Positions 10,129 through 54,249 of a DNA stretch of 64,000 nucleotides are shown piece by piece. Position 1 is the first letter of the stretch, and each line of letters begins with the position of its first letter. The translations under genes were made by a program, and so were the position numbers. The stretch comes from a bacterium (GTDB lineage Bacteria; UBA8248), in the NCBI GenBank assembly GCA_965261085.1, contig OZ253442.1:1248001-1312000 (forward strand). The letters are read 5' to 3'. A model generated the notes under the pieces. The model ran no database searches and was not told the DNA's origin. It saw only the letters and a program-made list of their open reading frames with translations.

Positions 10129-10205
<77 letters not shown>

Positions 10206-10372
10206 TGTGAAATCCCCTCTATGATGCCCCTCCCAAGCCGAGAGGGAAGCGCTTCCTCAAATCGTGAAATTACCCCTTTCCGCACTGCGCAAACGCGATA
10301 AATTCTGATATCTTAGGGGCGGATGAATCTCCCTTATTCTTGAATCGTTGTATTTTTCACAGGAGCCTGTAC

Positions 10373-11560
10373 GTGCAGAATAATTCACTACCCCTTTCGC
10401 GTTTCAAGGTCCTGGATCTCACCCGCGCGCGGGCCGGCCCCACGGCGGTTCGCCAGTTCGCGGACTGGGGGGCGGACGTCATCAAGATAGAAGCGCCTCT
10501 CTCGAGCGGCTATGCGGACAACATGATGAATCCCCGGAGCGGCTATGAGGCGCAAAATCTGCACCGCAACAAAAGGGCCATGACGCTCAACCTGCGAGAG
10601 GAAAAGGGCCGCGAGATATTCTTCCGCATGGTGAAGGGCGCCGACGTCGTGATCGAAAACTACCGGCCCGACGTGAAGCACCGCCTGGGGGTGGATTACG
10701 AGGCCTGCCGCGCGGTCAACCCGCGCATCGTCTACGGGAGCATCTCCGGTTTCGGGCAGGAGGGGCCATACCGCACGCGGCCGGGGCTGGACCAGATAGC
10801 CCAGGGGCTGAGCGGCCTCATGTCCGTTACCGGAAAGCCGGGGGATGGCCCCATGCGGGTGGGCATCCCGATTGCCGACCTCTCCGCGGGCTTCATGCTC
10901 GCGCAGGGGCTTCTCATCGCCCTGCTCGAGCGCGAAGTATCCGGCGAGGGACAATGGGTTTATACATCGCTCCTCGAAGCCCAGATTCAGATGATGGACT
11001 TTCAGGCCGCCCGATATCTGCTATTCGAAGAGGTGCCCACACAGCAGGGAAACAACCACCCCACCTTTTTGCCTGCGGGCGTCTTCGAGACGGCCGACGG
11101 GCGAATCAACATCCAGTCCGGCCCCCAGCATCTCTGGGAGCGCCTCGCGCATGCCCTGGAAGTGCCCGAACTGCTTGAAAACCCCGACTATGCGAGCCTC
11201 GAGAAGCGCTACGAAAACCGCGAGGCGCTTCACGAGGCCATCGCGCGCCGGACGCGGACGAAGCCCGGGGCCGAGTGGATTGAGATCCTGAACGAGGCGG
11301 GAATCCCCTGCGGCCCCATCTACACGGTAGACCAGACGTTCGCCGACCCCCAGGTCAAGGGGCTGAACATGTCGCCCGAGGTGGAGCATCCCGAGATGGG
11401 GCCCATAAAAATCGTGGGCCAGGCGGTGAAGCTTGCGCGAACGCCGCAGAAGATGCGCAACGCGGCGCCCGAGTTGGGGGCGCATACGGAAGAGATTTTG
11501 AAGGAAATGGGCTACGATGCGGAATCGATAGATCAATTGCGAGATGAGGGCATCGTCTGA
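10373..11560 (+). CDS. Family III CoA transferase (CaiB/BaiF)
   Basis: VLDLTRARAGP, WGADVIKIE, HRNKR, ADVVIENYRP, SGFGQEGPY..RPGLD, APELGAHTEEIL; AGGAG precedes GTG 10373. Confidence 0.92.
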   Translation: MQNNSLPLSRFKVLDLTRARAGPTAVRQFADWGADVIKIEAPLSSGYADNMMNPRSGYEAQNLHRNKRAMTLNLREEKGREIFFRMVKGADVVIENYRPDVKHRLGVDYEACRAVNPRIVYGSISGFGQEGPYRTRPGLDQIAQGLSGLMSVTGKPGDGPMRVGIPIADLSAGFMLAQGLLIALLEREVSGEGQWVYTSLLEAQIQMMDFQAARYLLFEEVPTQQGNNHPTFLPAGVFETADGRINIQSGPQHLWERLAHALEVPELLENPDYASLEKRYENREALHEAIARRTRTKPGAEWIEILNEAGIPCGPIYTVDQTFADPQVKGLNMSPEVEHPEMGPIKIVGQAVKLARTPQKMRNAAPELGAHTEEILKEMGYDAESIDQLRDEGIV

Positions 11561-11603
11561 AAACAATCCTGCCCCCTCGGGGGCGCAGCGTATGGAGCAT
11601 GGA

Positions 11604-12398
11604 ATGCAGTTATCGACGGAGAAAATGGCTTGCGAGGTGGATGGTGGAATCGGCTGGATGATCTTCAACAACCCCGAGCGGAGAAACGCGCTCTCGCTCG
11701 AGATGTGGGGGGCCATCGCCGAGATACTCGAAAATTTCGAGGCCGACGACGCCGTCCGTGTCGTGGTGATGAAGGGCTCAGGCGATAAGGCGTTCGTATC
11801 GGGCGCGGACATCTCGCAGTTCGCTAAAAACAGGAGCAACGCCGAGCAGGCCGCCGAGTACACGCGGATATCGGAAGAGGCCAAAGAGATCATGGTGGGG
11901 ATGAAAAAGCCTCTGATCGCCATGATCCAGGGCTATTGCCTGGGTGGCGGGCTGGGCATCGCGCTGAACGCCGACATCCGGGTGGCGTCTGATGATTCGC
12001 AGTTCGGCATCCCCGCCGGGCGTCTGGGCATCGCCTATGGTTTTGACAACTTGAAGCAGCTCGTCGATTTGGTGGGACCCGCGAAGGCGAAGGAGATTCT
12101 CTTCACCGCCCGGCGCATCCCGGCGGCGAAAGCGCTTGAGATCGGGCTGTTGAACGACGTCACACCCGTGGATGAACTGGAGGATTTCGTGGTGGATATG
12201 GCTTCCACCATCGCGAACAACGCGCCGCTTTCGATCAAGGCGTCCAAGCTCACCATCGGCGAGGTGGTGAAAGACGGCGCGGATCGCGATTTCGAGACGA
12301 TCGCCAGAATCTCGAAAGAATGCTTCGACAGCGCCGACTACAAAGAGGGCCGCACGGCGTTCATGGAGAAGAGAAAGCCCGTCTTCACGGGCAGATAA
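11604..12398 (+). CDS. Enoyl-CoA hydratase/isomerase (crotonase) family protein
   Basis: NNPERRNAL, AFVSGADISQF, GYCLGGG, DYKEGRTAFMEKRKPVF. Confidence 0.92.
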   Translation: MQLSTEKMACEVDGGIGWMIFNNPERRNALSLEMWGAIAEILENFEADDAVRVVVMKGSGDKAFVSGADISQFAKNRSNAEQAAEYTRISEEAKEIMVGMKKPLIAMIQGYCLGGGLGIALNADIRVASDDSQFGIPAGRLGIAYGFDNLKQLVDLVGPAKAKEILFTARRIPAAKALEIGLLNDVTPVDELEDFVVDMASTIANNAPLSIKASKLTIGEVVKDGADRDFETIARISKECFDSADYKEGRTAFMEKRKPVFTGR

Positions 12399-12422
12399 GA
12401 AGGCTTGAGCCTGGAGAATCCG

Positions 12423-13028
12423 ATGAACGAGGAGATATTCACCGGCATCATCTCCCCCGCAGGCATTCCCAGAATACCGGATGAGGCTCTGAAACCCAGA
12501 CCCGAGACGTTAGAGGGTGCGACTCTCGGTATCCTGGAGAACAACAAGGAATTCTCCGACTGGGTGCTGGACAGGGTGCGCGACCGGCTTCGGACGTCCT
12601 TTGAAATCACCGAAGTCGTCCAGCGCCGCAAGCACCATCTCGCCCAGTCGGCATCCCCTGAAATCCTGGAGGAGTTGAACGCGCGCTGCGACGCCGTTCT
12701 GGTCGGCGTGGGGCACTGAGGCTCCTCCACGTCGTGGAGTGTCCGCGACGCGGTGGAGCTTGAGAGGCTGGGAAGCCCCGCCTGCGTCATCGTGAGCCGG
12801 GGCTTCAGCCATAGTGGCCGCGCGATAGCGAGAAGGCAGGGCTACGGCGGCCTGCCCATCGTCGAGATGGACCATCCCCTCGCTGCACCTGAGAGAGAGG
12901 CGCTTCACCCCAAGGCGGACGCCATAGTGGAAGAAGTCGTCCACGCGCTCACGGCGGATGCGGGAGAGCTCCAGGCCGAATACAGGGTGAAGAAATTCAA
13001 AGGCCCCCGGAATCTTTGCCCGAAATAG
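12423..13028 (+). CDS. UGSC-family selenoprotein, 201 aa, Sec at codon 99 (TGA 12717-12719)
   Basis: ORF-track pieces 12405-12719 and 12753-13028 are one frame joined by GVGH-TGA-GSSTSWSVRDAVELE; SECIS-like hairpin immediately 3'; selA and selB in the window. Confidence 0.88.
12720..12760 (+). promoter_or_regulatory. Bacterial SECIS element
   Basis: GCTCCTCCACGTCGTGGA-GTG-TCCGCGACGCGGTGGAGC: 18-position stem with 2 mismatches and 1 GU pair; apical loop begins with GU 19 nt after UGA. Confidence 0.8.
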
Positions 13029-13041
13029 GGGGAGGTGGAGC

Positions 13042-14115
13042 TTGGCCGAAAACGTCGAAAACCCCTCCGCGGAAGCGGGCAGGCGGGTTCTGCCTATCAC
13101 CGGCTCCCTCGATGAGGTAAACGCCTATTTCTACGAACGCGGCTGGACGGACGGGCTGCCCATCGTCCCGCCGACTCACGAGCGCGTGGAGCATCTGCTC
13201 GGCGGCCGGCCGGGGGAGCCGGACGAGGAAATCGCCGAGGTTCCTCCCCTGATGGGAGTGGCGACGGTCCGCGCGGTCGCTGTGAACGCCGTGATGGCGG
13301 GCTGTGCGCCCGAGTATCTGCCCGTCGTCGTCACAGCCGTCTCGGCCATCACCAAGCCGCGCTATGGCCTCAGCCACCGGCAGACGACGACGCACCCCGC
13401 CACCGCGCTCATCATCGTGAACGGCCCCATCGCAAGGCGTCTCAGGATAAACTCCGGCTCGGGCCTTTTCGGCCCCGGGTGGCGGGCGAACGCGACGATA
13501 GGCCGCGCGCTCAGGCTCTGCCTCATCAACCTGGGCGGAGCGATTCCCGGCGAGGTGGACCGCGCCCAGCACGCCCATCCCGGCAAATACACCTACTGCA
13601 TCGCCGAGAATGAAGACGCGAACCCCTGGGATCCTTATCACGTGGAGCGCGGCTTCGCGCGCGATGAGAGCACCGTAACGCTCATGTGCGGCGAGTCGCC
13701 CCACTGCATCACGGACAACTACAATACCGACCCCCACGCGCTTCTCTTCGGCTATGCGGACTCGATGGCGACGCTGGGCGGGAACAATCTCTCCTCCCAG
13801 GGAGAGCCCGTGCTCGTCATGGCGCCCGAGCACGCCGCCTATATCGCGCGGGCGGGCTGGAGCAAGGCGGACGTGAAGCGCTACCTCTTCGAGAAGGCGA
13901 GAAAGCCCTGGAAGCACGTGGGCGTTCGCGGAAAATCGAAAGGCCCCACCTTTCCCGTCTGGGTCGACAGAACGAACCCCGAAGCCTCCGTGCCCATCCT
14001 CACCCACGCGGACGCCCTCATCCTCATCATCGGGGGAGGCGAGGGACAAAAATCCATGTGGATTCCCACCCCCGGCGCGCAGACGCTGAGCGTCATCGAG
14101 AAAATCCGGGAGTAG
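13042..14115 (+). CDS. Conserved hypothetical protein of the family found next to UGSC (seleno)proteins
   Basis: GWTDGLPIVPPT, AVNAVMAGC.PEY, RANATIGRALRL, AENE..NPW; GGAGG RBS before TTG. Confidence 0.8.
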   Translation: MAENVENPSAEAGRRVLPITGSLDEVNAYFYERGWTDGLPIVPPTHERVEHLLGGRPGEPDEEIAEVPPLMGVATVRAVAVNAVMAGCAPEYLPVVVTAVSAITKPRYGLSHRQTTTHPATALIIVNGPIARRLRINSGSGLFGPGWRANATIGRALRLCLINLGGAIPGEVDRAQHAHPGKYTYCIAENEDANPWDPYHVERGFARDESTVTLMCGESPHCITDNYNTDPHALLFGYADSMATLGGNNLSSQGEPVLVMAPEHAAYIARAGWSKADVKRYLFEKARKPWKHVGVRGKSKGPTFPVWVDRTNPEASVPILTHADALILIIGGGEGQKSMWIPTPGAQTLSVIEKIRE

Positions 14116-14190: not shown

Positions 14191-14481
14191 GTGGTAGAGG
14201 TTCGCCAAACCGATCAATATGCCCGATGGTTCGAGAGGCTTCGAGACGGGCGAGCAAAGGCGCGCATCAACACTCGCATCAGACGGTTGTCATTGGGCAA
14301 TCCCGGAGATGTGCGGGCGGTCGGGGGAGGGGTCTCGGAGCTTCGGGTCGACTATGGGCCCGGCTATCGCATTTACTTCGTGCAGCAAGGACAATCCTTG
14401 GTGCTCCTGCGGGCCGGAGGGGATAAAAGCACTCAAGCTCGTGATATCCAAAGGGCGAGGAATCTGGCGAGAGAGTTATAG
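14191..14481 (+). CDS. RelE/ParE-family addiction module killer protein
   Basis: GNPGDVRAVGGGVSELRVDYGPGYRIYF, GGDKSTQARDI. Confidence 0.9.
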   Translation: MVEVRQTDQYARWFERLRDGRAKARINTRIRRLSLGNPGDVRAVGGGVSELRVDYGPGYRIYFVQQGQSLVLLRAGGDKSTQARDIQRARNLAREL

Positions 14482-14490
14482 GGGTTTGTG

Positions 14491-14775
14491 ATGGCGAAGA
14501 CGAAGACCAAGCCATGGGATGCGGCGGAGCACCTTGAGACCAAAGAGGATATCGCTCTCTATCTCGAGGCGGCTTTCGAGGATGGCGATCCGGCGCTCAT
14601 CGCGGCGGCATTGGGCGACGCTGCGAGGGCCAAGGGGATGACAAAAGTCGCCGCCGAAGCCGGTTTGGGCAGGGAGAGTCTCTACAAGGCGCTCTCGCCC
14701 AAGGGGAATCCCGAGTTCGCCACCATTCTCAAGGTCATTCGCGCCCTGGGTTTGCGGCTTCGCGCATCCGCTTGA
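14491..14775 (+). CDS. Addiction module antidote protein (HI1420-like HTH)
   Basis: WDAAEHL, ALGDAARAKGMTKVA.EAGLGRESLYKALS..GNPEFATILKV. Confidence 0.9.
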   Translation: MAKTKTKPWDAAEHLETKEDIALYLEAAFEDGDPALIAAALGDAARAKGMTKVAAEAGLGRESLYKALSPKGNPEFATILKVIRALGLRLRASA

Positions 14776-15004
14776 GCGCCCGGCAACGATTTTATGGGCT
14801 CCGGGCGGGTATGCCGGTACGCCCCCTCCAATCCATATGCAGCTTGATGAATGCCTTATCCACCCCGCTGGCCAAAGATTTCATAAAAAAAAGGTTGTGA
14901 GAAAATCCCCATCATGTTATTTTTTATTTCCACATTTGCGACACGCCAGAGGACGTTTCTATATTTTCTTGATGCCCACGAGGGCCCACGAGGGAGACAT
15001 TGCG

Positions 15005-16030
15005 ATGAAACAGTACTTATCCACCGTAGTATGCGCGATTGTTGTCTTGGTATTGACTGCAAGCGCCGCGTTCGCCGCCAGCGCGACGCTGGAGACGGTG
15101 AAAAAGCGCGGCAATCTCATTTGCGGCGTCAACACCGGCCTCACGGGCTTCTCCTCGCCCGACGACAAGGGCGTCTGGAGAGGTTTCGACGTCGATTACT
15201 GCCGCGCCGTCAGCGCCGCTGTTTTCGGCAATCCCGACAAGGTGACCTACAAGCCGCTGACCGGTAAGACGCGCTTCCCGGCGCTTCAATCGGGTGAAAT
15301 CGACGTTCTCTCCCGCAACACGACGTGGACCTTCAAGCGCGACGTGAACCTGGGCTTCGAGTTCGTCGGCGTGCTGTATTACGACGGGCAGGGCTTCATC
15401 ACCCGCAAGTCCCTCGGCCTCAAGAGCGCCAAGGAGCTCGACGGCTCTTCGGTCTGCATTCAGACGGGCACCACGACCGAACTCAATCTGGCCGACTATT
15501 TCCGCAGCAACAAGATGAAGTTCAAATCGGTCGTCGTCGAGGACGCGGCCGAGGCGCGCCAGAACTACGCCGCCAACCGCTGCGACGCCTACACGACGGA
15601 CCGCTCCGGCCTCGCGGCCCAGCGCTCCGTGCTCAAGAACCCGGACGCGCACGTGGTCCTGCCCGAAATCATCTCGAAGGAGCCCCTCGGCCCCGTCGTG
15701 CGCCACGGCGACAACGTATGGGGCGACATCGCCCGCTGGGTGCGCAACGCGCTCATCGTCGCCGAGGAACTCGGCCTCACTTCCAAGAACGTCGACGCCA
15801 TGAAGAAATCGAACAACCCCGAGATCAAGCGCTTTCTCGGTCAGGAAGGCGACTTGGGCAGCATGCTCGGCCTCTCGAAGGACTGGGCCTACAACGTCAT
15901 CAAGGGCGTGGGCAACTACTCCGAGATCTACGAGCGCCACATCGGCCCCAAGACGGCCATCGGCCTCGCGCGCGGCTACAACAACCTGTGGACGAACGGC
16001 GGCATTCTCTACTCGCCTCCGTTCCGCTAG
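15005..16030 (+). CDS. aapJ: General L-amino acid ABC transporter substrate-binding protein
   Basis: CGVNTGL.GFS, RFPALQSGEIDVLSRNTTWT, ISKEPLGP, NNLWTNGGILYSPPFR. Confidence 0.9.
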   Translation: MKQYLSTVVCAIVVLVLTASAAFAASATLETVKKRGNLICGVNTGLTGFSSPDDKGVWRGFDVDYCRAVSAAVFGNPDKVTYKPLTGKTRFPALQSGEIDVLSRNTTWTFKRDVNLGFEFVGVLYYDGQGFITRKSLGLKSAKELDGSSVCIQTGTTTELNLADYFRSNKMKFKSVVVEDAAEARQNYAANRCDAYTTDRSGLAAQRSVLKNPDAHVVLPEIISKEPLGPVVRHGDNVWGDIARWVRNALIVAEELGLTSKNVDAMKKSNNPEIKRFLGQEGDLGSMLGLSKDWAYNVIKGVGNYSEIYERHIGPKTAIGLARGYNNLWTNGGILYSPPFR

Positions 16031-49982: not shown

Positions 49983-51893
49983 TTATCTCGCGTCTGGCCG
50001 AAGCACTCTTTTGTCTCCCACCCGTAGCGTAACGCGTGCGGTATCGAAATATTCAAGCAAAGGTATGGCGTGTTTTCTTGTGATGCCCAACAGGTCCCGA
50101 AATTCCGCCGCCGAAATTTCGTTGTTGAGTGATAGATGTTCTTTAAGGAGGTTTTCTGCTTCGTTTAAAGCATTTTTATGATAGATAATGTTATCCTTCA
50201 GTCGCAGTAAGGCGCCTTGGTCGATGAGGATTTGCAAGGCATTTCGATTTGAGTTGTCTTTGTCGTCGCTGTGTGAGAATGCGTCTTCGACGGATGGCGG
50301 TTGAAAGTGGGCAATCTCGAAAATCTTCTCTAGTTTTGTTTTCACTTCTCCGAGTGTTTCATCAATTTCTACTGAATGGGAAGCGAGCCTTAGGATGGCG
50401 CCATTTTCAACTATTTCGTTTGATTCGCTTAAGTGTTTAAGTGCGGCGGCAAAGATTTTTTCATTGATGTCGCCTGCCTTACCGCGAACTTCTTCCTTAG
50501 GTGCTCCTGTGCGAAGAGGGTTCTCAGTATGATATTTCTTCAAAAAAGTGAGAATATTTTTTTGGGCTGTGTTGAAGTGGGCTGTAGTCATCGAGAAAAA
50601 ATTGACTTGGTCGATAATTTGCACTTCTCCTTGAGCAGCTAATTCTTGAATGGTTTTTTCGATGTCACTTCGCTTGAGTGTGAGACGGCCTGTGAGGACA
50701 GTGAGATCAACCCCATTCAACCGTGAGTCCTGGAGTAAAATGAGCAATCTTTCCGTCTCATCACCTTGATAAAGTGATTTCAAGTGATCTATAGACGAAC
50801 TCCGCAATCGTCTATGCTTGCGAGGCATAATATCCAAGATTTCCCCGCCACCTATCGTGATGATTGGCGAATAACTTCTGATGACAAATCGATCTCTGGG
50901 CAGTACGACGATAGGTTCCTCCAGCCGTATTTGGGCAAATGAATTATCTCCCGGTTCGAGCACATCTCGTCCGATGAGAGATATCCTGCCCATGATTTCA
51001 GCGGTACCTGCATGGAAGCGAATACGATTCCGGGTTTTCAAAGGACGAGGTGCGTCGGCCAGATGCTCAAGATGAACATCGAGCATATACGTTGTTTTCA
51101 GTTCACCACGATGACCGATGATGTCTCCCCTGAACACCTCCGCTCGCTCGAGGCCCTGAAGATTCACGGCGGTTCTGAGGCCGGCAGTCGATTTTTCCAC
51201 GGACTCCCCATGTACTTGTAAGCCACGAACGCGCGCCTGAAGAGCCTTTGGGTAAACTTCAATTTGTTCACCTACAGCCACACTTCCACTGAGCAAGGTT
51301 CCCGTTATCACGACACCGAAGCCCCGCATCGTGAATACACGGTCAATCGGTATTCGAAAGATACCCGTTTCGCTTTTTGCAGGCGTCTGATTTGCGATTT
51401 CGACCAAAGCTTTTTTGAGATTTTCCAGACCATCTCCAGTGTGAGCCGAAACCGGCACAATGGGTTTTTCTTCCAAAAAGGTATCTTTGACGAAGTTTTG
51501 TATATCGTCCATCACAAGTTCAACCCATTCTGGTTCGACCAGATCTGTTTTGGTGAGCACGATGAGGCCGGTTTTTACCCCGAGAAGTCGGCAAATCGAC
51601 AAATGCTCCCTCGTTTGCGGCATGACGCCTTCATCGGCAGCAATGATCAGCATCACCAAATCGATCCCTCCGACTCCTGCCAACATGTTTTTTACGAATC
51701 GTTCATGGCCCGGAACATCCACGATACCTGCGTGGATGTTACCGAGAATCAACTCCGCAAACCCGAGCTCGATGGTGATGCCGCGTTCTTTTTCTTCTTT
51801 TAGGCGATCAGTGTCTGTGCCGGTTAACGCTTTGACGAGAGAGGTTTTGCCATGATCAATGTGGCCAGCGGTTCCGATGACAACATGTTTCAT
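49983..51893 (-). CDS. selB: Selenocysteine-specific elongation factor
   Basis: [11 protein letters not shown]...[26 protein letters not shown]-terminal winged helices ending [19 protein letters not shown]...RVGDKR. Confidence 0.96.
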
Positions 51894-51941
51894 AAGATGG
51901 CTTCGCCTTCGTGGTTGATAGGCGAGATATAAAAATATCGA

Positions 51942-52745
51942 TTAGTCATGGCGATGGATGAATTCAAGGATCGATTCATTGAATTCAACCGGTTTTTCAA
52001 GATATACGAAATGGCCGCCTTCATCAAAAATTTTCAATTCAGCTCCAGGGATGGCATCGCTCAATTGGTGAGAATAATAGAGGGGAGTGACGACATCGTC
52101 TCTTGCCACTGCCACCAGCACTGGACTTGTGATTTGACCCAAGCGGTCCAACTGGTCATGCGCAATAATGCACTCGATTCTCTCGGCCATAATCTCAGCC
52201 GGAGGCGCGTTTGCAATCGATTGGTTTTCCTGCAATTGGATTGTCTGAAAGTTGTCGGTGAAAAACTTTGGGCTATGCAAGGTGAAGGTAGAAAACCTCG
52301 TGTAAGTCTCCCATCCCATCCCGAGCAAGACTTCTTTGCGTACACGAAACTGGCGGGTGAAATATTCGTCGCTCTTGGGCCAGGAACTTACTATGGAGCC
52401 GCTTTTGACACGGCCGGGATAGTCAATGCACATTACTTGGATGATGGCTCCGCCGGTTGAACTGCCGACGAGATGCGCTTTTTCTATTCCTAGGTCATCC
52501 ATGATAGCGGTGATATCTTTCGCCATGTTGGGAACGCTGTATACCCCGCTCGGTTTTGCGCTATTTCCTGTTCCCCTATGGTCATGAAGGATGAGTGGCC
52601 TGGTCGCAGAAAAAGCATCGATTTGCTTCGTCCATGATGCACGAATGCCTCCCAGCCCGCTGATCAGGAAAACAGGCGTATCGTTATGCTGGGGGTTGAT
52701 GACTTCATAATCTATTGCAACACCTTCGGAATTAACGGTTGGCAT
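51942..52745 (-). CDS. Alpha/beta hydrolase (RutD/PcaD-like)
   Basis: SGLGG, DHRGTGNS, GSSTGG nucleophile elbow, DD.VTP, GGH. Confidence 0.85.
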   Translation of the reverse strand: MPTVNSEGVAIDYEVINPQHNDTPVFLISGLGGIRASWTKQIDAFSATRPLILHDHRGTGNSAKPSGVYSVPNMAKDITAIMDDLGIEKAHLVGSSTGGAIIQVMCIDYPGRVKSGSIVSSWPKSDEYFTRQFRVRKEVLLGMGWETYTRFSTFTLHSPKFFTDNFQTIQLQENQSIANAPPAEIMAERIECIIAHDQLDRLGQITSPVLVAVARDDVVTPLYYSHQLSDAIPGAELKIFDEGGHFVYLEKPVEFNESILEFIHRHD

Positions 52746-52806
52746 CGGAAAATTGTCCCCTGTTTTCGTGTTAGCGAGAGAAATGAAATCCAGACAAGGT
52801 CGAAGA

Positions 52807-54249
52807 TTACTTTGCGAATTCGTTGAGAATCACGCCAAGTTGATTTATTTCCCCTACTCTAATGCATCGCAGGTCTAATATTACTTTATCCTCATGAATG
52901 CGTGCCACAACAGGTGGAGTAGCATTGCGCAGCTTGGTTTCCAACGATTTGGCGGAAAAATTTTTGGGAGATAATGTCACAGCGTAACTATCGAGTTTCG
53001 CCAGGGGCATTGCCCCGCCGCCTACCATCCCCGAAGTTTCTTCCACCTTGGCGCCGAGCACGGAACAAGTATGTTCCCCCATCAGATTCATCAAAGATTC
53101 CGCCTGTTTTTTCAGTTTTTCCCGGTTGGTGGACAACATTTGAAGAATCGGGATCTGGGTGTGGGCAGCATCAGGATCTAGATACACCCTGAGTGTTGCT
53201 TCTAATGCGGCGAGCGTTAGCTTATCCAGCCTGAGAATGCGCATGAGAGGATGTTTTTTCATTTTCTCTATCCATGTCGCCTTGCCTACAACAATCCCAG
53301 CCTGCGGGCCGCCGAGTAGTTTGTCTCCGGAAAAAGTAACGACATCGATTCCCGCTCGGATTGACTCTAGGACGGTGGGTTCATGAGGCAAACCATCAAT
53401 ATCAATCAGCGAACCGCTCCCCAGATCTTCTAGCGTGGGTATATTTGTTTCCCTGCTGAGTTTTGAGAGTTCATCGCGAGATACTTCTTCCGTAAAGCCG
53501 ACAATCCTGTAATTACTTGTATGTGCTTTCAGCAGCAATGCCGTATGTTGGGTGATGGCGTTGCGGTAGTCGTTTATTCTCGTTTTGTTGGTTGTCCCTA
53601 CTTCTATTAATTTTGCGCCGCTTTGGCGCATGATATCCGGAATTCGGAAAGAATCACCGATTTCGACCAGCTCTCCTCGTGAAACGATTACTTCAGCGGA
53701 ATTGGCCATCGTATGAATCGCGAACATCACGGCTGCAGCGTTGTTGTTGACGACCAATGCCGCCTCCGCCCCTGTAAGTTGGCAAAGAAGAGATTCCACA
53801 TCTACTCCTCTTTTTCCTCTCCGTCCGAGGTTCAAATCGAATTCCAGGTTTGAATATCCCTGGGTCACATCATTGAGGGCGGACCTTGCTGCCTCACTTA
53901 ATGGCGCTCGACCCAGATTTGTGTGCAGCACGATTCCTGTGGCATTAATGACTTTTTTCAAGCCAAGTTGTTTATTCGAAGAAAGGATTTGTTTTGCTTC
54001 ATTTAGAACGATATCCCGAAGCGTTTGCTCGGACAGCGATGCGTTTTCCGTAGGATTCGGGAATTCCTGGTTCGTTTGTTCAAGTAGAAGCTGTCTTTTC
54101 GTTCCGATTGCTTTTCTGACGGCATCGGATAGGGCGGTGTCTGATGAGCTATTTACACCGTCATTTTTGAGGCGGGTAACGATTTCATCCACCGAAGGTA
54201 ATAGCCGAAGCAGTTTGGATTGAAAATTTCGAGCGTCTGGAGAAGTCAT
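52807..54249 (-). CDS. selA: L-seryl-tRNA(Sec) selenium transferase
   Basis: VINATGIVLHTNLGRAPL, VVNNNAAAV, SRGELVEIG.SFRIPD, EVGTTN, FSGDKLLGGPQAG; likely start ATG 54249. Confidence 0.96.
   Translation of the reverse strand: MTSPDARNFQSKLLRLLPSVDEIVTRLKNDGVNSSSDTALSDAVRKAIGTKRQLLLEQTNQEFPNPTENASLSEQTLRDIVLNEAKQILSSNKQLGLKKVINATGIVLHTNLGRAPLSEAARSALNDVTQGYSNLEFDLNLGRRGKRGVDVESLLCQLTGAEAALVVNNNAAAVMFAIHTMANSAEVIVSRGELVEIGDSFRIPDIMRQSGAKLIEVGTTNKTRINDYRNAITQHTALLLKAHTSNYRIVGFTEEVSRDELSKLSRETNIPTLEDLGSGSLIDIDGLPHEPTVLESIRAGIDVVTFSGDKLLGGPQAGIVVGKATWIEKMKKHPLMRILRLDKLTLAALEATLRVYLDPDAAHTQIPILQMLSTNREKLKKQAESLMNLMGEHTCSVLGAKVEETSGMVGGGAMPLAKLDSYAVTLSPKNFSAKSLETKLRNATPPVVARIHEDKVILDLRCIRVGEINQLGVILNEFAK

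Follow-up and report, generated by a model that had tools for sequence, protein, structure and literature searches.

The UGSC proteins (PF24696; NF041046) have been known as a family since the ocean metagenome surveys. In its passages on them, the Global Ocean Sampling (GOS) selenoproteome paper counts the UGSC-containing protein among the most abundant environmental selenoprotein families, gives it a 'likely Trx-like fold' (Trx, thioredoxin), and mentions its fusion to a domain called 'Unknown_1' (PMC2398784); the entries on the family in reviews give only UGSC/UxxC as its motif, with U for selenocysteine (Sec). The other described proteins that matter here are selenoprotein B of the glycine, sarcosine and betaine reductases (GrdB, GrdF, GrdH) and PrdB of D-proline reductase (PF07355, TIGR01917/TIGR04483), Sec subunits of ~430 residues that work with a second, substrate-binding subunit (GrdE, PrdA, of the pyruvoyl-proenzyme type), and in review entries GrdB and PrdB are listed as U-x-x-C reductases. 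Here we describe a UGSC protein in which the name-giving Cys at +3 (U-G-S-C, U-x-x-C) is absent and replaced by Ser102. Its gene lies at 12423-13028 of the window, which is the whole 64,000-nucleotide stretch analysed (positions 1,248,001 to 1,312,000 of contig OZ253442.1, assembly GCA_965261085.1, from a bacterium of the lineage UBA8248).

Our best explanation, in which we place moderate confidence, is that this gene encodes a Sec-decoded UGSC protein belonging to a UGSS clade, and that this protein is the small subunit of a two-subunit enzyme in which Sec acts as a lone nucleophile. The features on which the argument turns are the following.

12423..13028, + strand: predicted selenoprotein gene, 201 aa and a TAG stop (13026-13028), H-U-G-S-S clade of the UGSC family
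12714..12728, + strand: motif codons His98-Sec99-Gly100-Ser101-Ser102, CAC TGA GGC TCC TCC, from reading the frame
12717..12719, + strand: UGA predicted to be read as Sec, residue 99; kept in the genus and in distant loci, a Cys codon in Cys-form orthologs
12719..12761, + strand: full local hairpin from the fold, 18 main pairs (7+2+9), lower stem not conserved
12730..12750, + strand: conserved SECIS-type upper hairpin (type A; SECIS, selenocysteine insertion sequence), nine pairs 12730-12738/12742-12750 with a six-pair core 12733-12738/12742-12747
13042..14115, + strand: partner gene of an unnamed family, 357 aa, starting 14 nt after the selenoprotein stop

The in-frame UGA and its hairpin

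Two open reading frames under genetic code table 11 (12405/12423-12719 and 12753-13028) lie in a single frame with only TGA 12717-12719 between them, as an earlier note on this DNA, made from the letters alone, had pointed out. With TGA written as U they join into one protein of 201 residues, DAVLVGVGH-U-GSSTSWSVRDAVELE, whose turn reads VGH-U-GSSTSW and whose Ser102 codon is TCC 12726-12728; GGAGAA precedes the ATG at 12423. A sequencing error, which the note had named as something that would undo its proposal, is not what the contigs and genomes indicate: contigs of two further public runs, from other studies, bridge the TGA with the same letters (X1, 12421-13172; X2, 12334-13104; bridging was set at 31 nt), TGA are the only letters listed at 12717-12719 across four public runs, and 20 of 22 genomes of the genus carry an ortholog with exactly one TGA, 76-92% identical over residues 1-201. 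Where the motif itself was read in the genus (this locus and 19 others, G016 being left out), all 20 loci gave H-U-G-S-S-T-S-W-S-V-R-D-A.

These contigs also yielded two side observations. X1 and X2 share 13 differences from the window that cluster within 25 nt (12510-12534), a patch in the N-terminal part of the selenoprotein that looks strain-variable. Two RNA-library contigs from different studies (X15 and X16) both start at 12694/12695, 22-23 nt before the TGA and hence short of the bridging rule, at a place where DNA contigs continue through; these starts could reflect a break caused by strain variation or an RNA end. RNA-library contigs may derive from library DNA, and we draw no claim about expression from them.

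Family membership extends across the TGA. The read-through protein matches the Pfam UGSC profile PF24696 with 157 bits (gathering cut-off 25; E 6.9e-46), residues 20-177 covering profile positions 13-171/172 with U/C at the same column, which bears out the link to UGSC-family proteins drawn in the earlier note. Its AlphaFold2 (AF2) model, built with 110 homologs, is confident through the Sec site (pLDDT 94.8) and sets residue 99 between a strand (91-97) and a helix (100-116). Homologs had been expected to align across the TGA with Cys in that column, and they do so: Cys occupies it in 132 of 143 representatives that cover the site and in 28 Cys-form orthologs from the loci described below. Alignment A2 shows C99 and G100 as near-invariant positions (at least 90%), and this protein has U99-G100 there. 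An exhaustive search supplied these homologs, a word-indexed protein search having returned two selenoprotein fragments only.

Could the TGA simply be a true stop, leaving a split or decaying gene with a 98-aa fragment and an untranslated downstream frame? Gene callers do cut relatives at this codon, and the database fragments P0002, P0003, P0007 and P0022 terminate exactly at ...VGH; we read them as putative Sec orthologs truncated at the TGA by the callers. Against a stop, the downstream half is kept in frame at the identity given above in 20 genomes, Cys codons stand at the TGA position in the 28 orthologs, the hairpin is kept in TGA forms only, the Pfam match and the high-confidence fold both cross the TGA, and the genome holds a complete Sec machinery. 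We regard a true stop as extremely improbable. Two parts of the machinery lie within the window.

52861..53952 (G000:C1:1300861-1301952), - strand: selA, selenocysteine synthase (PF03841, 514 bits)
50001..50141, - strand: selB C-terminal winged-helix domain, SECIS-binding elongation factor (PF09107, 74.1 bits), inside a 652-aa open frame

Together (50001-53952) they lie ~37 kb from the selenoprotein gene. tRNA-Sec is present (75.9 bits), and the best selD match (336 bits; G000:C1:3459-4421, L004) itself contains one in-frame TGA, its product probably being a selenoprotein in its own right. The sequence marks of SelB-dependent recoding are found here, namely an in-frame UGA, Cys or Sec in homologs, a stem-loop 3' of the UGA, and selA, selB, selD and tRNA-Sec. 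Because the TGA is conserved, orthologs carry Cys codons in its place, the hairpin occurs only in TGA forms and the Sec machinery is present, 12423-13028 is, as far as comparative sequence evidence goes, a genuine selenoprotein gene.

Turning to the hairpin, the 57 nt 12714-12770 fold with -34.7 kcal/mol, against a mean of -20.3 for dinucleotide shuffles (z -4.96; 0 of 200 as low), and the apical loop G-U-G (12739-12741) begins 19 nt past the UGA, which bears out the hairpin and the spacing given in the earlier note. Bacterial SECIS elements are usually searched for at about 16-37 nt from the UGA. The label 'textbook SECIS', also given to it, is right about a working type of element but overstated: only the upper 6-9 pairs are conserved, the lower 3' arm does not pair in most orthologs read, the window's complete fold recurs in only 4 of 79 unique sequences folded, and most other members carry a second hairpin form. 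Two forms in fact occupy the same codons among Sec-form relatives and were assessed separately, a joint consensus fold of all Sec forms having failed because there are two types. Type A, the form of this gene, has 93.9% of cells paired over 20 distinct sequences, with no unpaired cell in any of the six core pairs; one pair has changed on both sides in compensation (G-C to C-G), and several single changes still permit a wobble pair. Type B (54 sequences, mostly labelled proteobacterial) forms eight pairs that close a C-G-U-G-A loop; 99.8% of its cells are paired, and it too shows one compensatory change.

Covariation is thin at one compensatory pair per type, and the contrast between Sec and Cys forms is therefore the stronger argument. 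A fully paired type A or B stem is found in 73 of 74 unique Sec forms and in none of 28 Cys forms, a contrast tempered by the stems having been defined on Sec-form sequences and by the Cys forms being one related group, mostly labelled Alphaproteobacteria, that also has an Arg-to-Ile change in the hairpin stretch; mean folding energies are -15.9 kcal/mol for Sec forms and -11.4 kcal/mol for Cys forms. A scan of 12600-12900 against Rfam gave no relevant match. We take the upper hairpin, just downstream of the codon, to be the element that guides SelB, which would read UGA 12717-12719 as Sec.

The H-U-G-S-S clade

The usual family turn is C-G-S-C, found in 102 of the 143 representatives; of the 143, 121 have Asp at -1 and 120 have Cys at +3. 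Our protein shares with the family the U/C column and the Gly that follows, and differs from it in the turn, which is H-U-G-S-S here as opposed to D-U-G-S-C, His98 standing where the family usually has Asp. Of the seven other UGSC paralogs of this genome, six have U-G-S-C and one has U-G-G-C. Scored with C in place of U, this protein reaches 124.2 bits on the equivalog model NF041046, below its curated cut-off of 125; three Cys-form members of the clade described below score 104.4, 102.2 and 80 bits, and two further members in which +3 is Ser reach 109.1 and 116.1 bits, next to 144.4, 138.2, 152.2 and 120 bits for classical CGSC members. This leaves an annotation gap, with this protein and four tested clade relatives under the NCBI cut-off, and we infer that such genes are often cut at the TGA and left unnamed, which the four ...VGH fragments fit.

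How far does this turn extend? The downstream partner gene was used as the handle because it is better conserved, and with it 160 loci were gathered from public genomes and metagenomes and scanned with the family profile, TGA being rendered as U. The profile gave 153 hits in 141 of the 160 loci; in 15 of the 19 remaining loci hardly any sequence precedes the partner gene. Of the 153 hits, 128 lie on the partner's strand and immediately upstream of it, with these motifs.

H-U-G-S-S: 82 of 128
H-C-G-S-S: 28 of 128
D-U-G-S-C: 12 of 128
H-C-G-A-S: 1 of 128
D-C-G-S-C: 1 of 128
D-C-G-G-C: 1 of 128
gapped: 3 of 128

Sorted by how identical their partner is to the partner encoded at this locus, a criterion independent of the motif, the same genes divide as follows.

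partner identity at least 55%, 113 adjacent genes: 110 H-[U/C]-G-S-S, 1 H-C-G-A-S, 1 D-U-G-S-C, 1 gapped
partner identity below 55%, 15 adjacent genes: none with Ser at +3, 13 with Cys at +3, 2 gapped

Throughout the 125 ungapped adjacent genes, H at -1 always goes with S at +3 and D always with C. Ser at +3 is therefore coupled with an Asp-to-His change at -1, on which the earlier note was silent; the replacement of the resolving Cys by Ser, which it had reported, proves stable, being found in all 20 genus loci and in 110 of the 113 genes next to partners at least 55% identical. A tree of 164 sequences made with FastTree (fused proteins of more than 300 aa and gapped rows dropped, and 15 of 111 H-type loci sampled) places all sampled H-type proteins in one clade with support 0.996, and Cys at +3 is absent from all 21 tips of that clade. 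Elsewhere in the tree the +3 Cys appears to have been lost separately in smaller groups, for instance one with D-C-G-T-S. Sec forms come from metagenome-assembled genomes labelled Nitrospinota, Betaproteobacteria or Burkholderiales, Acidobacteriota, Eremiobacterota and others, and Cys forms mostly from Xanthobacteraceae and other Alphaproteobacteria, as labelled.

Judged by motif, partner and tree, H-U-G-S-S marks a large, widespread clade and not a single odd gene. The motif had been called unusual, and so it is relative to the family as described in print; as an oddity of one gene it is not, since it is clade-wide. A full-text literature search for UGSS with selenocysteine returned no paper, and the GOS supplements (Figure S1A, Table S1) might show such sequences. 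What is new, then, is the extent and coherence of this Cys-less clade, the coupled Asp-to-His change, two SECIS forms that are lost in Cys forms, and scores that fall below the NCBI naming cut-off. The clade also amounts to a natural experiment, having shed the second Cys and kept Sec or Cys at the first position; it would follow that the first position carries the essential chemistry and that the +3 Cys is dispensable in this clade.

The partner protein and the proposed chemistry of Sec99

The 357-aa partner belongs to no family in Pfam and NCBIfam searches, and its homologs, at least 8000 hits, are labelled 'hypothetical protein' wherever they are named. This genome holds 15 partner paralogs, and all eight of its UGSC paralogs lie beside a partner homolog, are fused to one, or lie at most 2.7 kb from a tandem array of four. 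Pairing with the partner, by adjacency or by fusion, is near-universal. Our assumption is that 'Unknown_1' of the GOS paper is the same domain.

Within the genome, the four tandem partner paralogs (G000:C1:654343-658487) lie ~2.7 kb upstream of a U-G-S-C gene (661157-661660, L012), and the U-G-G-C paralog (G000:C1:3191545-3193095, L017) runs without a stop into a partner-like domain, a natural fusion in a 560-aa open frame that is followed by a further partner paralog (C1:3190477-3191445). Three other partner paralogs (C1:1674633-1675601, 1701756-1702715 and 3059424-3060398) had no UGSC hit nearby in the genome scan.

The partner's own structure model reaches pLDDT 83.6, and fold searches with it turned up no solved structure that convinces as a relative (Foldseek TM up to 0.33; VIA Z up to 5.7). 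The hits on class I fumarate hydratase and on Toblerone-fold hydrolases were weak (TM 0.19-0.33), and we draw no function from them. Neither protein had a match in a sequence search of the PDB (best E 0.32 for the selenoprotein and 0.54 for the partner), and an Atlas search of the partner returned unnamed clusters, one that bears the automatic name 'Thioredoxin family protein', and one, at score 0.89, in which UGSC makes up 16%, which we treat as leads only.

The complex was modelled from P0013, a Cys-form protein of this clade in which selenoprotein-like and partner domains are naturally fused (G-H-C-G-A-S-S), each domain being entered separately. The model has a median score of 0.66, as opposed to 0.01 for the best control; at least 81% of contacts are shared between runs, and pLDDT in the partner is 88 or higher. 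Of 80 solved complexes 58 attain this mark, and of 110 mismatched pairs 2, counts that calibrate this result only roughly, since it was modelled on P0013 rather than on the gene pair of the window and with an alignment of our own. Two domains of one fused protein would be expected to meet in any case, which makes the pass itself weak news; what informs is the place of the contacts. On the selenoprotein side they involve the N-terminal tail and, in the turn, the Sec-equivalent Cys together with G, A, S, S and W; in the partner they involve P43, P44, T45, N82, V84, M85, G109-R113, T115-H118 and N163-G165, which include most of the partner's invariant and near-invariant positions. The 357-aa product is, on this model, probably the second subunit.

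A two-subunit arrangement is familiar from selenoprotein B and PrdB, to which the family shows a distant likeness. At E <=0.01 the GrdB model TIGR01917 picks up 34 of the 110 family members, the best with E 2.9e-10 and still well short of the 602-bit cut-off, on the C-terminal region in both members whose coordinates were seen, and at the same threshold 13 members match TIGR01918, 12 GrdF, 9 PrdB and 5 GrdH. In the reverse direction, the family profile laid on a selenoprotein-B-like gene of this genome aligns Sec on Sec, weakly so (5.3 bits, E 0.015 in a tiny database). These profile matches indicate a distant kinship, and not a membership, between the UGSC family and that C-terminal part of selenoprotein B which carries the Sec. 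GrdB and PrdB are Sec subunits working with a second, substrate-binding subunit, and we propose an analogous pair here; unlike them, this protein has ~200 residues and not ~430, and its partner is not recognisably GrdE or PrdA. Selenoprotein B proper is represented in the genome by two full-length selenoprotein-B-like genes with one TGA each (388 and 374 bits on TIGR01917, under 602; G000:C1:2149391-2150686, L206, and 1206090-1207379, L207), the turn of L206, A-T-U-G-T-G-T, also being without Cys at +3, and by three shorter GrdB-like matches, again with one TGA each.

Is this perhaps a stand-alone thioredoxin-like redox protein, with the neighbouring gene merely co-located? The fold considered likely in the GOS passage would fit such a reading, and a 2026 review, in its entry, groups the family with Trx-fold proteins. 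The modelled selenoprotein is a five-strand alpha/beta fold whose best matches are flavodoxin- or Rossmann-like (TM at most 0.47; Z at most 10.9, many unrelated families tied), though thioredoxins could be missing from these match lists even if the fold were theirs. Moreover, the protein almost always comes beside the partner or fused to it, the complex model stands up to its controls, and the clade is without the second redox cysteine, all of which makes a stand-alone thioredoxin very unlikely. From the fold searches of the selenoprotein, which gave generic alpha/beta matches only, we draw no function.

Sec with Ser at +3 has precedents in motif: review tables contain U-x-x-S selenoproteins, namely the arsenate reductase ArsC, the rhodanese-like form 1 and an AhpC/TSA-like peroxiredoxin. 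These three resemble this clade in having Sec with Ser at +3 and no nearby resolving Cys; they belong to unrelated folds and families, and the likeness is one of motif pattern only, homology not having been sought.

If the resolving Cys is gone, has another taken its place? A Cys column both specific to the clade and universal in it was sought in the selenoprotein and partner alignments of the two motif classes, and none was found. Position 172 of the selenoprotein has an extra Cys in 77% of the clade and Val in the genus itself, C89 is equally common in both classes, and the partner's C88 (91% in the clade vs 84%) and C186 (100% vs 91%) are conserved in both. The +3 Cys having been lost with no clade-specific replacement, this subunit would not run an intramolecular U-x-x-C selenium-sulphur (Se-S) cycle. 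A mono-selenol resolved by a partner protein or by the substrate, as the earlier note had suggested, is plausible to the extent that a partner exists and is modelled at the Sec turn; with no clade-specific cysteine found in either protein, its resolution by a partner thiol is a candidate step only.

A redox enzyme could still be imagined in which the part of the lost Cys102 passes to C88 or C186 of the partner, or to an outside dithiol, with which Sec99 would form a selenenylsulfide. The near-invariance of C88 and C186 favours this, as do the position of M85, three residues from C88, in the modelled interface and the listing of the related selenoprotein B enzymes as U-x-x-C reductases; yet both cysteines are equally conserved where Cys102 is present, and neither is among the confident contacts. 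We hold such a redox cycle to be less likely than the lone nucleophile, yet a serious rival to it. A scan of the flanks for thioredoxin and thioredoxin reductase motifs found none in 111 clade loci or in 33 classical loci, a result that cannot separate redox from non-redox chemistry.

We return to the lone nucleophile, which for Sec99 is the most likely role on the pattern of conserved and lost residues. In the mechanism that we posit, the protein is the small, Sec-carrying subunit and the 357-aa product the large subunit of the enzyme. Sec99 would sit at the start of a helix in a Rossmann/flavodoxin-like domain, and the Sec turn and N-terminal tail may dock on the best-conserved motifs of the partner, GLPxxPPT, NAVMAGC and QTTTH, forming a shared active site, as the modelled contacts suggest. 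There Sec99 would attack alone, assisted by His98, and the intermediate would be released by substrate, water or an outside thiol.

Further columns switch between the two motif classes. The classes were defined by His98 and Ser102, which makes those two columns circular; independent switches are found at positions 44 (F/N) and 125 (S/T) of the selenoprotein and at 108 (Y/F), 109 (G/N), 176 (Q/T), 194 (N/S) and 226 (N/H) of the partner, position 109 lying within the modelled interface. Between the classes His98 pairs with Asn226 and Asp98 with His226 (window 12714-12716 and 13717-13719). This looks like a histidine shifted between subunits, as a pattern from one evolutionary split in which 226 makes no confident contact.

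Several points weigh against the lone-nucleophile enzyme, in addition to the limits already given for covariation, for the hairpin contrast and for the calibration of the complex. The clade is a single evolutionary event, so that the D-to-H and C-to-S coupling and the partner switches G109/N, N226/H and Q176/T are not independent observations. The helper role of His98 and the non-redox reading come from sequence alone, and in every class the resolving thiol might be that of C88 or C186 in the partner. Both lie outside the confident contacts of the complex model, which yields contacts and not distances. This protein itself (P0001) has no hit to the selenoprotein B models, that of GrdB included, at E <=0.01, and the entries in reviews list no function for the UGSC family. 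Finally, the substrate may differ between the genus and the distant loci, because their gene contexts differ.

A bolder version, which we think improbable at present, is that the H-U-G-S-S clade and its partner constitute a distinct selenoenzyme with a Sec-His catalytic pair and no intramolecular Se-S redox cycle. If this were true, the reaction might, for example, add to, eliminate from or isomerise a carboxylic acid or acyl-CoA in a redox-neutral way; Sec would be used outside its usual thiol-disulfide-like pattern, and the partner would represent a new enzyme fold with a composite active site. Chemistry and substrate class are here what we infer from conserved residues and gene neighbourhoods. 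The pair is a concrete candidate for expression, with a modelled interface, and offers residues to mutate: His98, Sec99 and Ser102 in the selenoprotein, and C88, C186 and T115-H118 in the partner.

Neighbouring genes

The selenoprotein and partner genes stand in a same-strand run, around which the following features lie.

10340..11560, + strand: family III CoA-transferase gene, opening the run (PF02515, E 6.6e-117)
11544..12398, + strand: enoyl-CoA hydratase/isomerase gene, directly upstream of the selenoprotein gene (PF00378, E 3.3e-55)
14191-14775: two-gene pair after the partner, a Gp49-like protein (PF05973, 22.1 bits, just under the cut-off) and an addiction-module antidote protein (PF21716, E 1.9e-31)

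The hydratase gene lies directly upstream in 15 of 15 loci whose partner is at least 85% identical and in none of 77 more distant loci, and the CoA-transferase and hydratase were accordingly rejected as a general context, being genus-specific. The recurrent neighbours at 95 distant loci are TctC-type carboxylate receptors (53), MmgE/PrpD (35), an ABC exporter (20), GntR-FCD regulators (18) and asparaginase (17). Taken together, the neighbourhoods point to organic-acid or acyl-CoA metabolism, without naming a substrate. The pair at 14191-14775 is probably a toxin-antitoxin insert that closes the operon; a family 3 solute-binding protein follows it at 14837-16030, and a tRNA-Pro (TGG) lies at 10129-10205, just upstream of the CoA-transferase gene.

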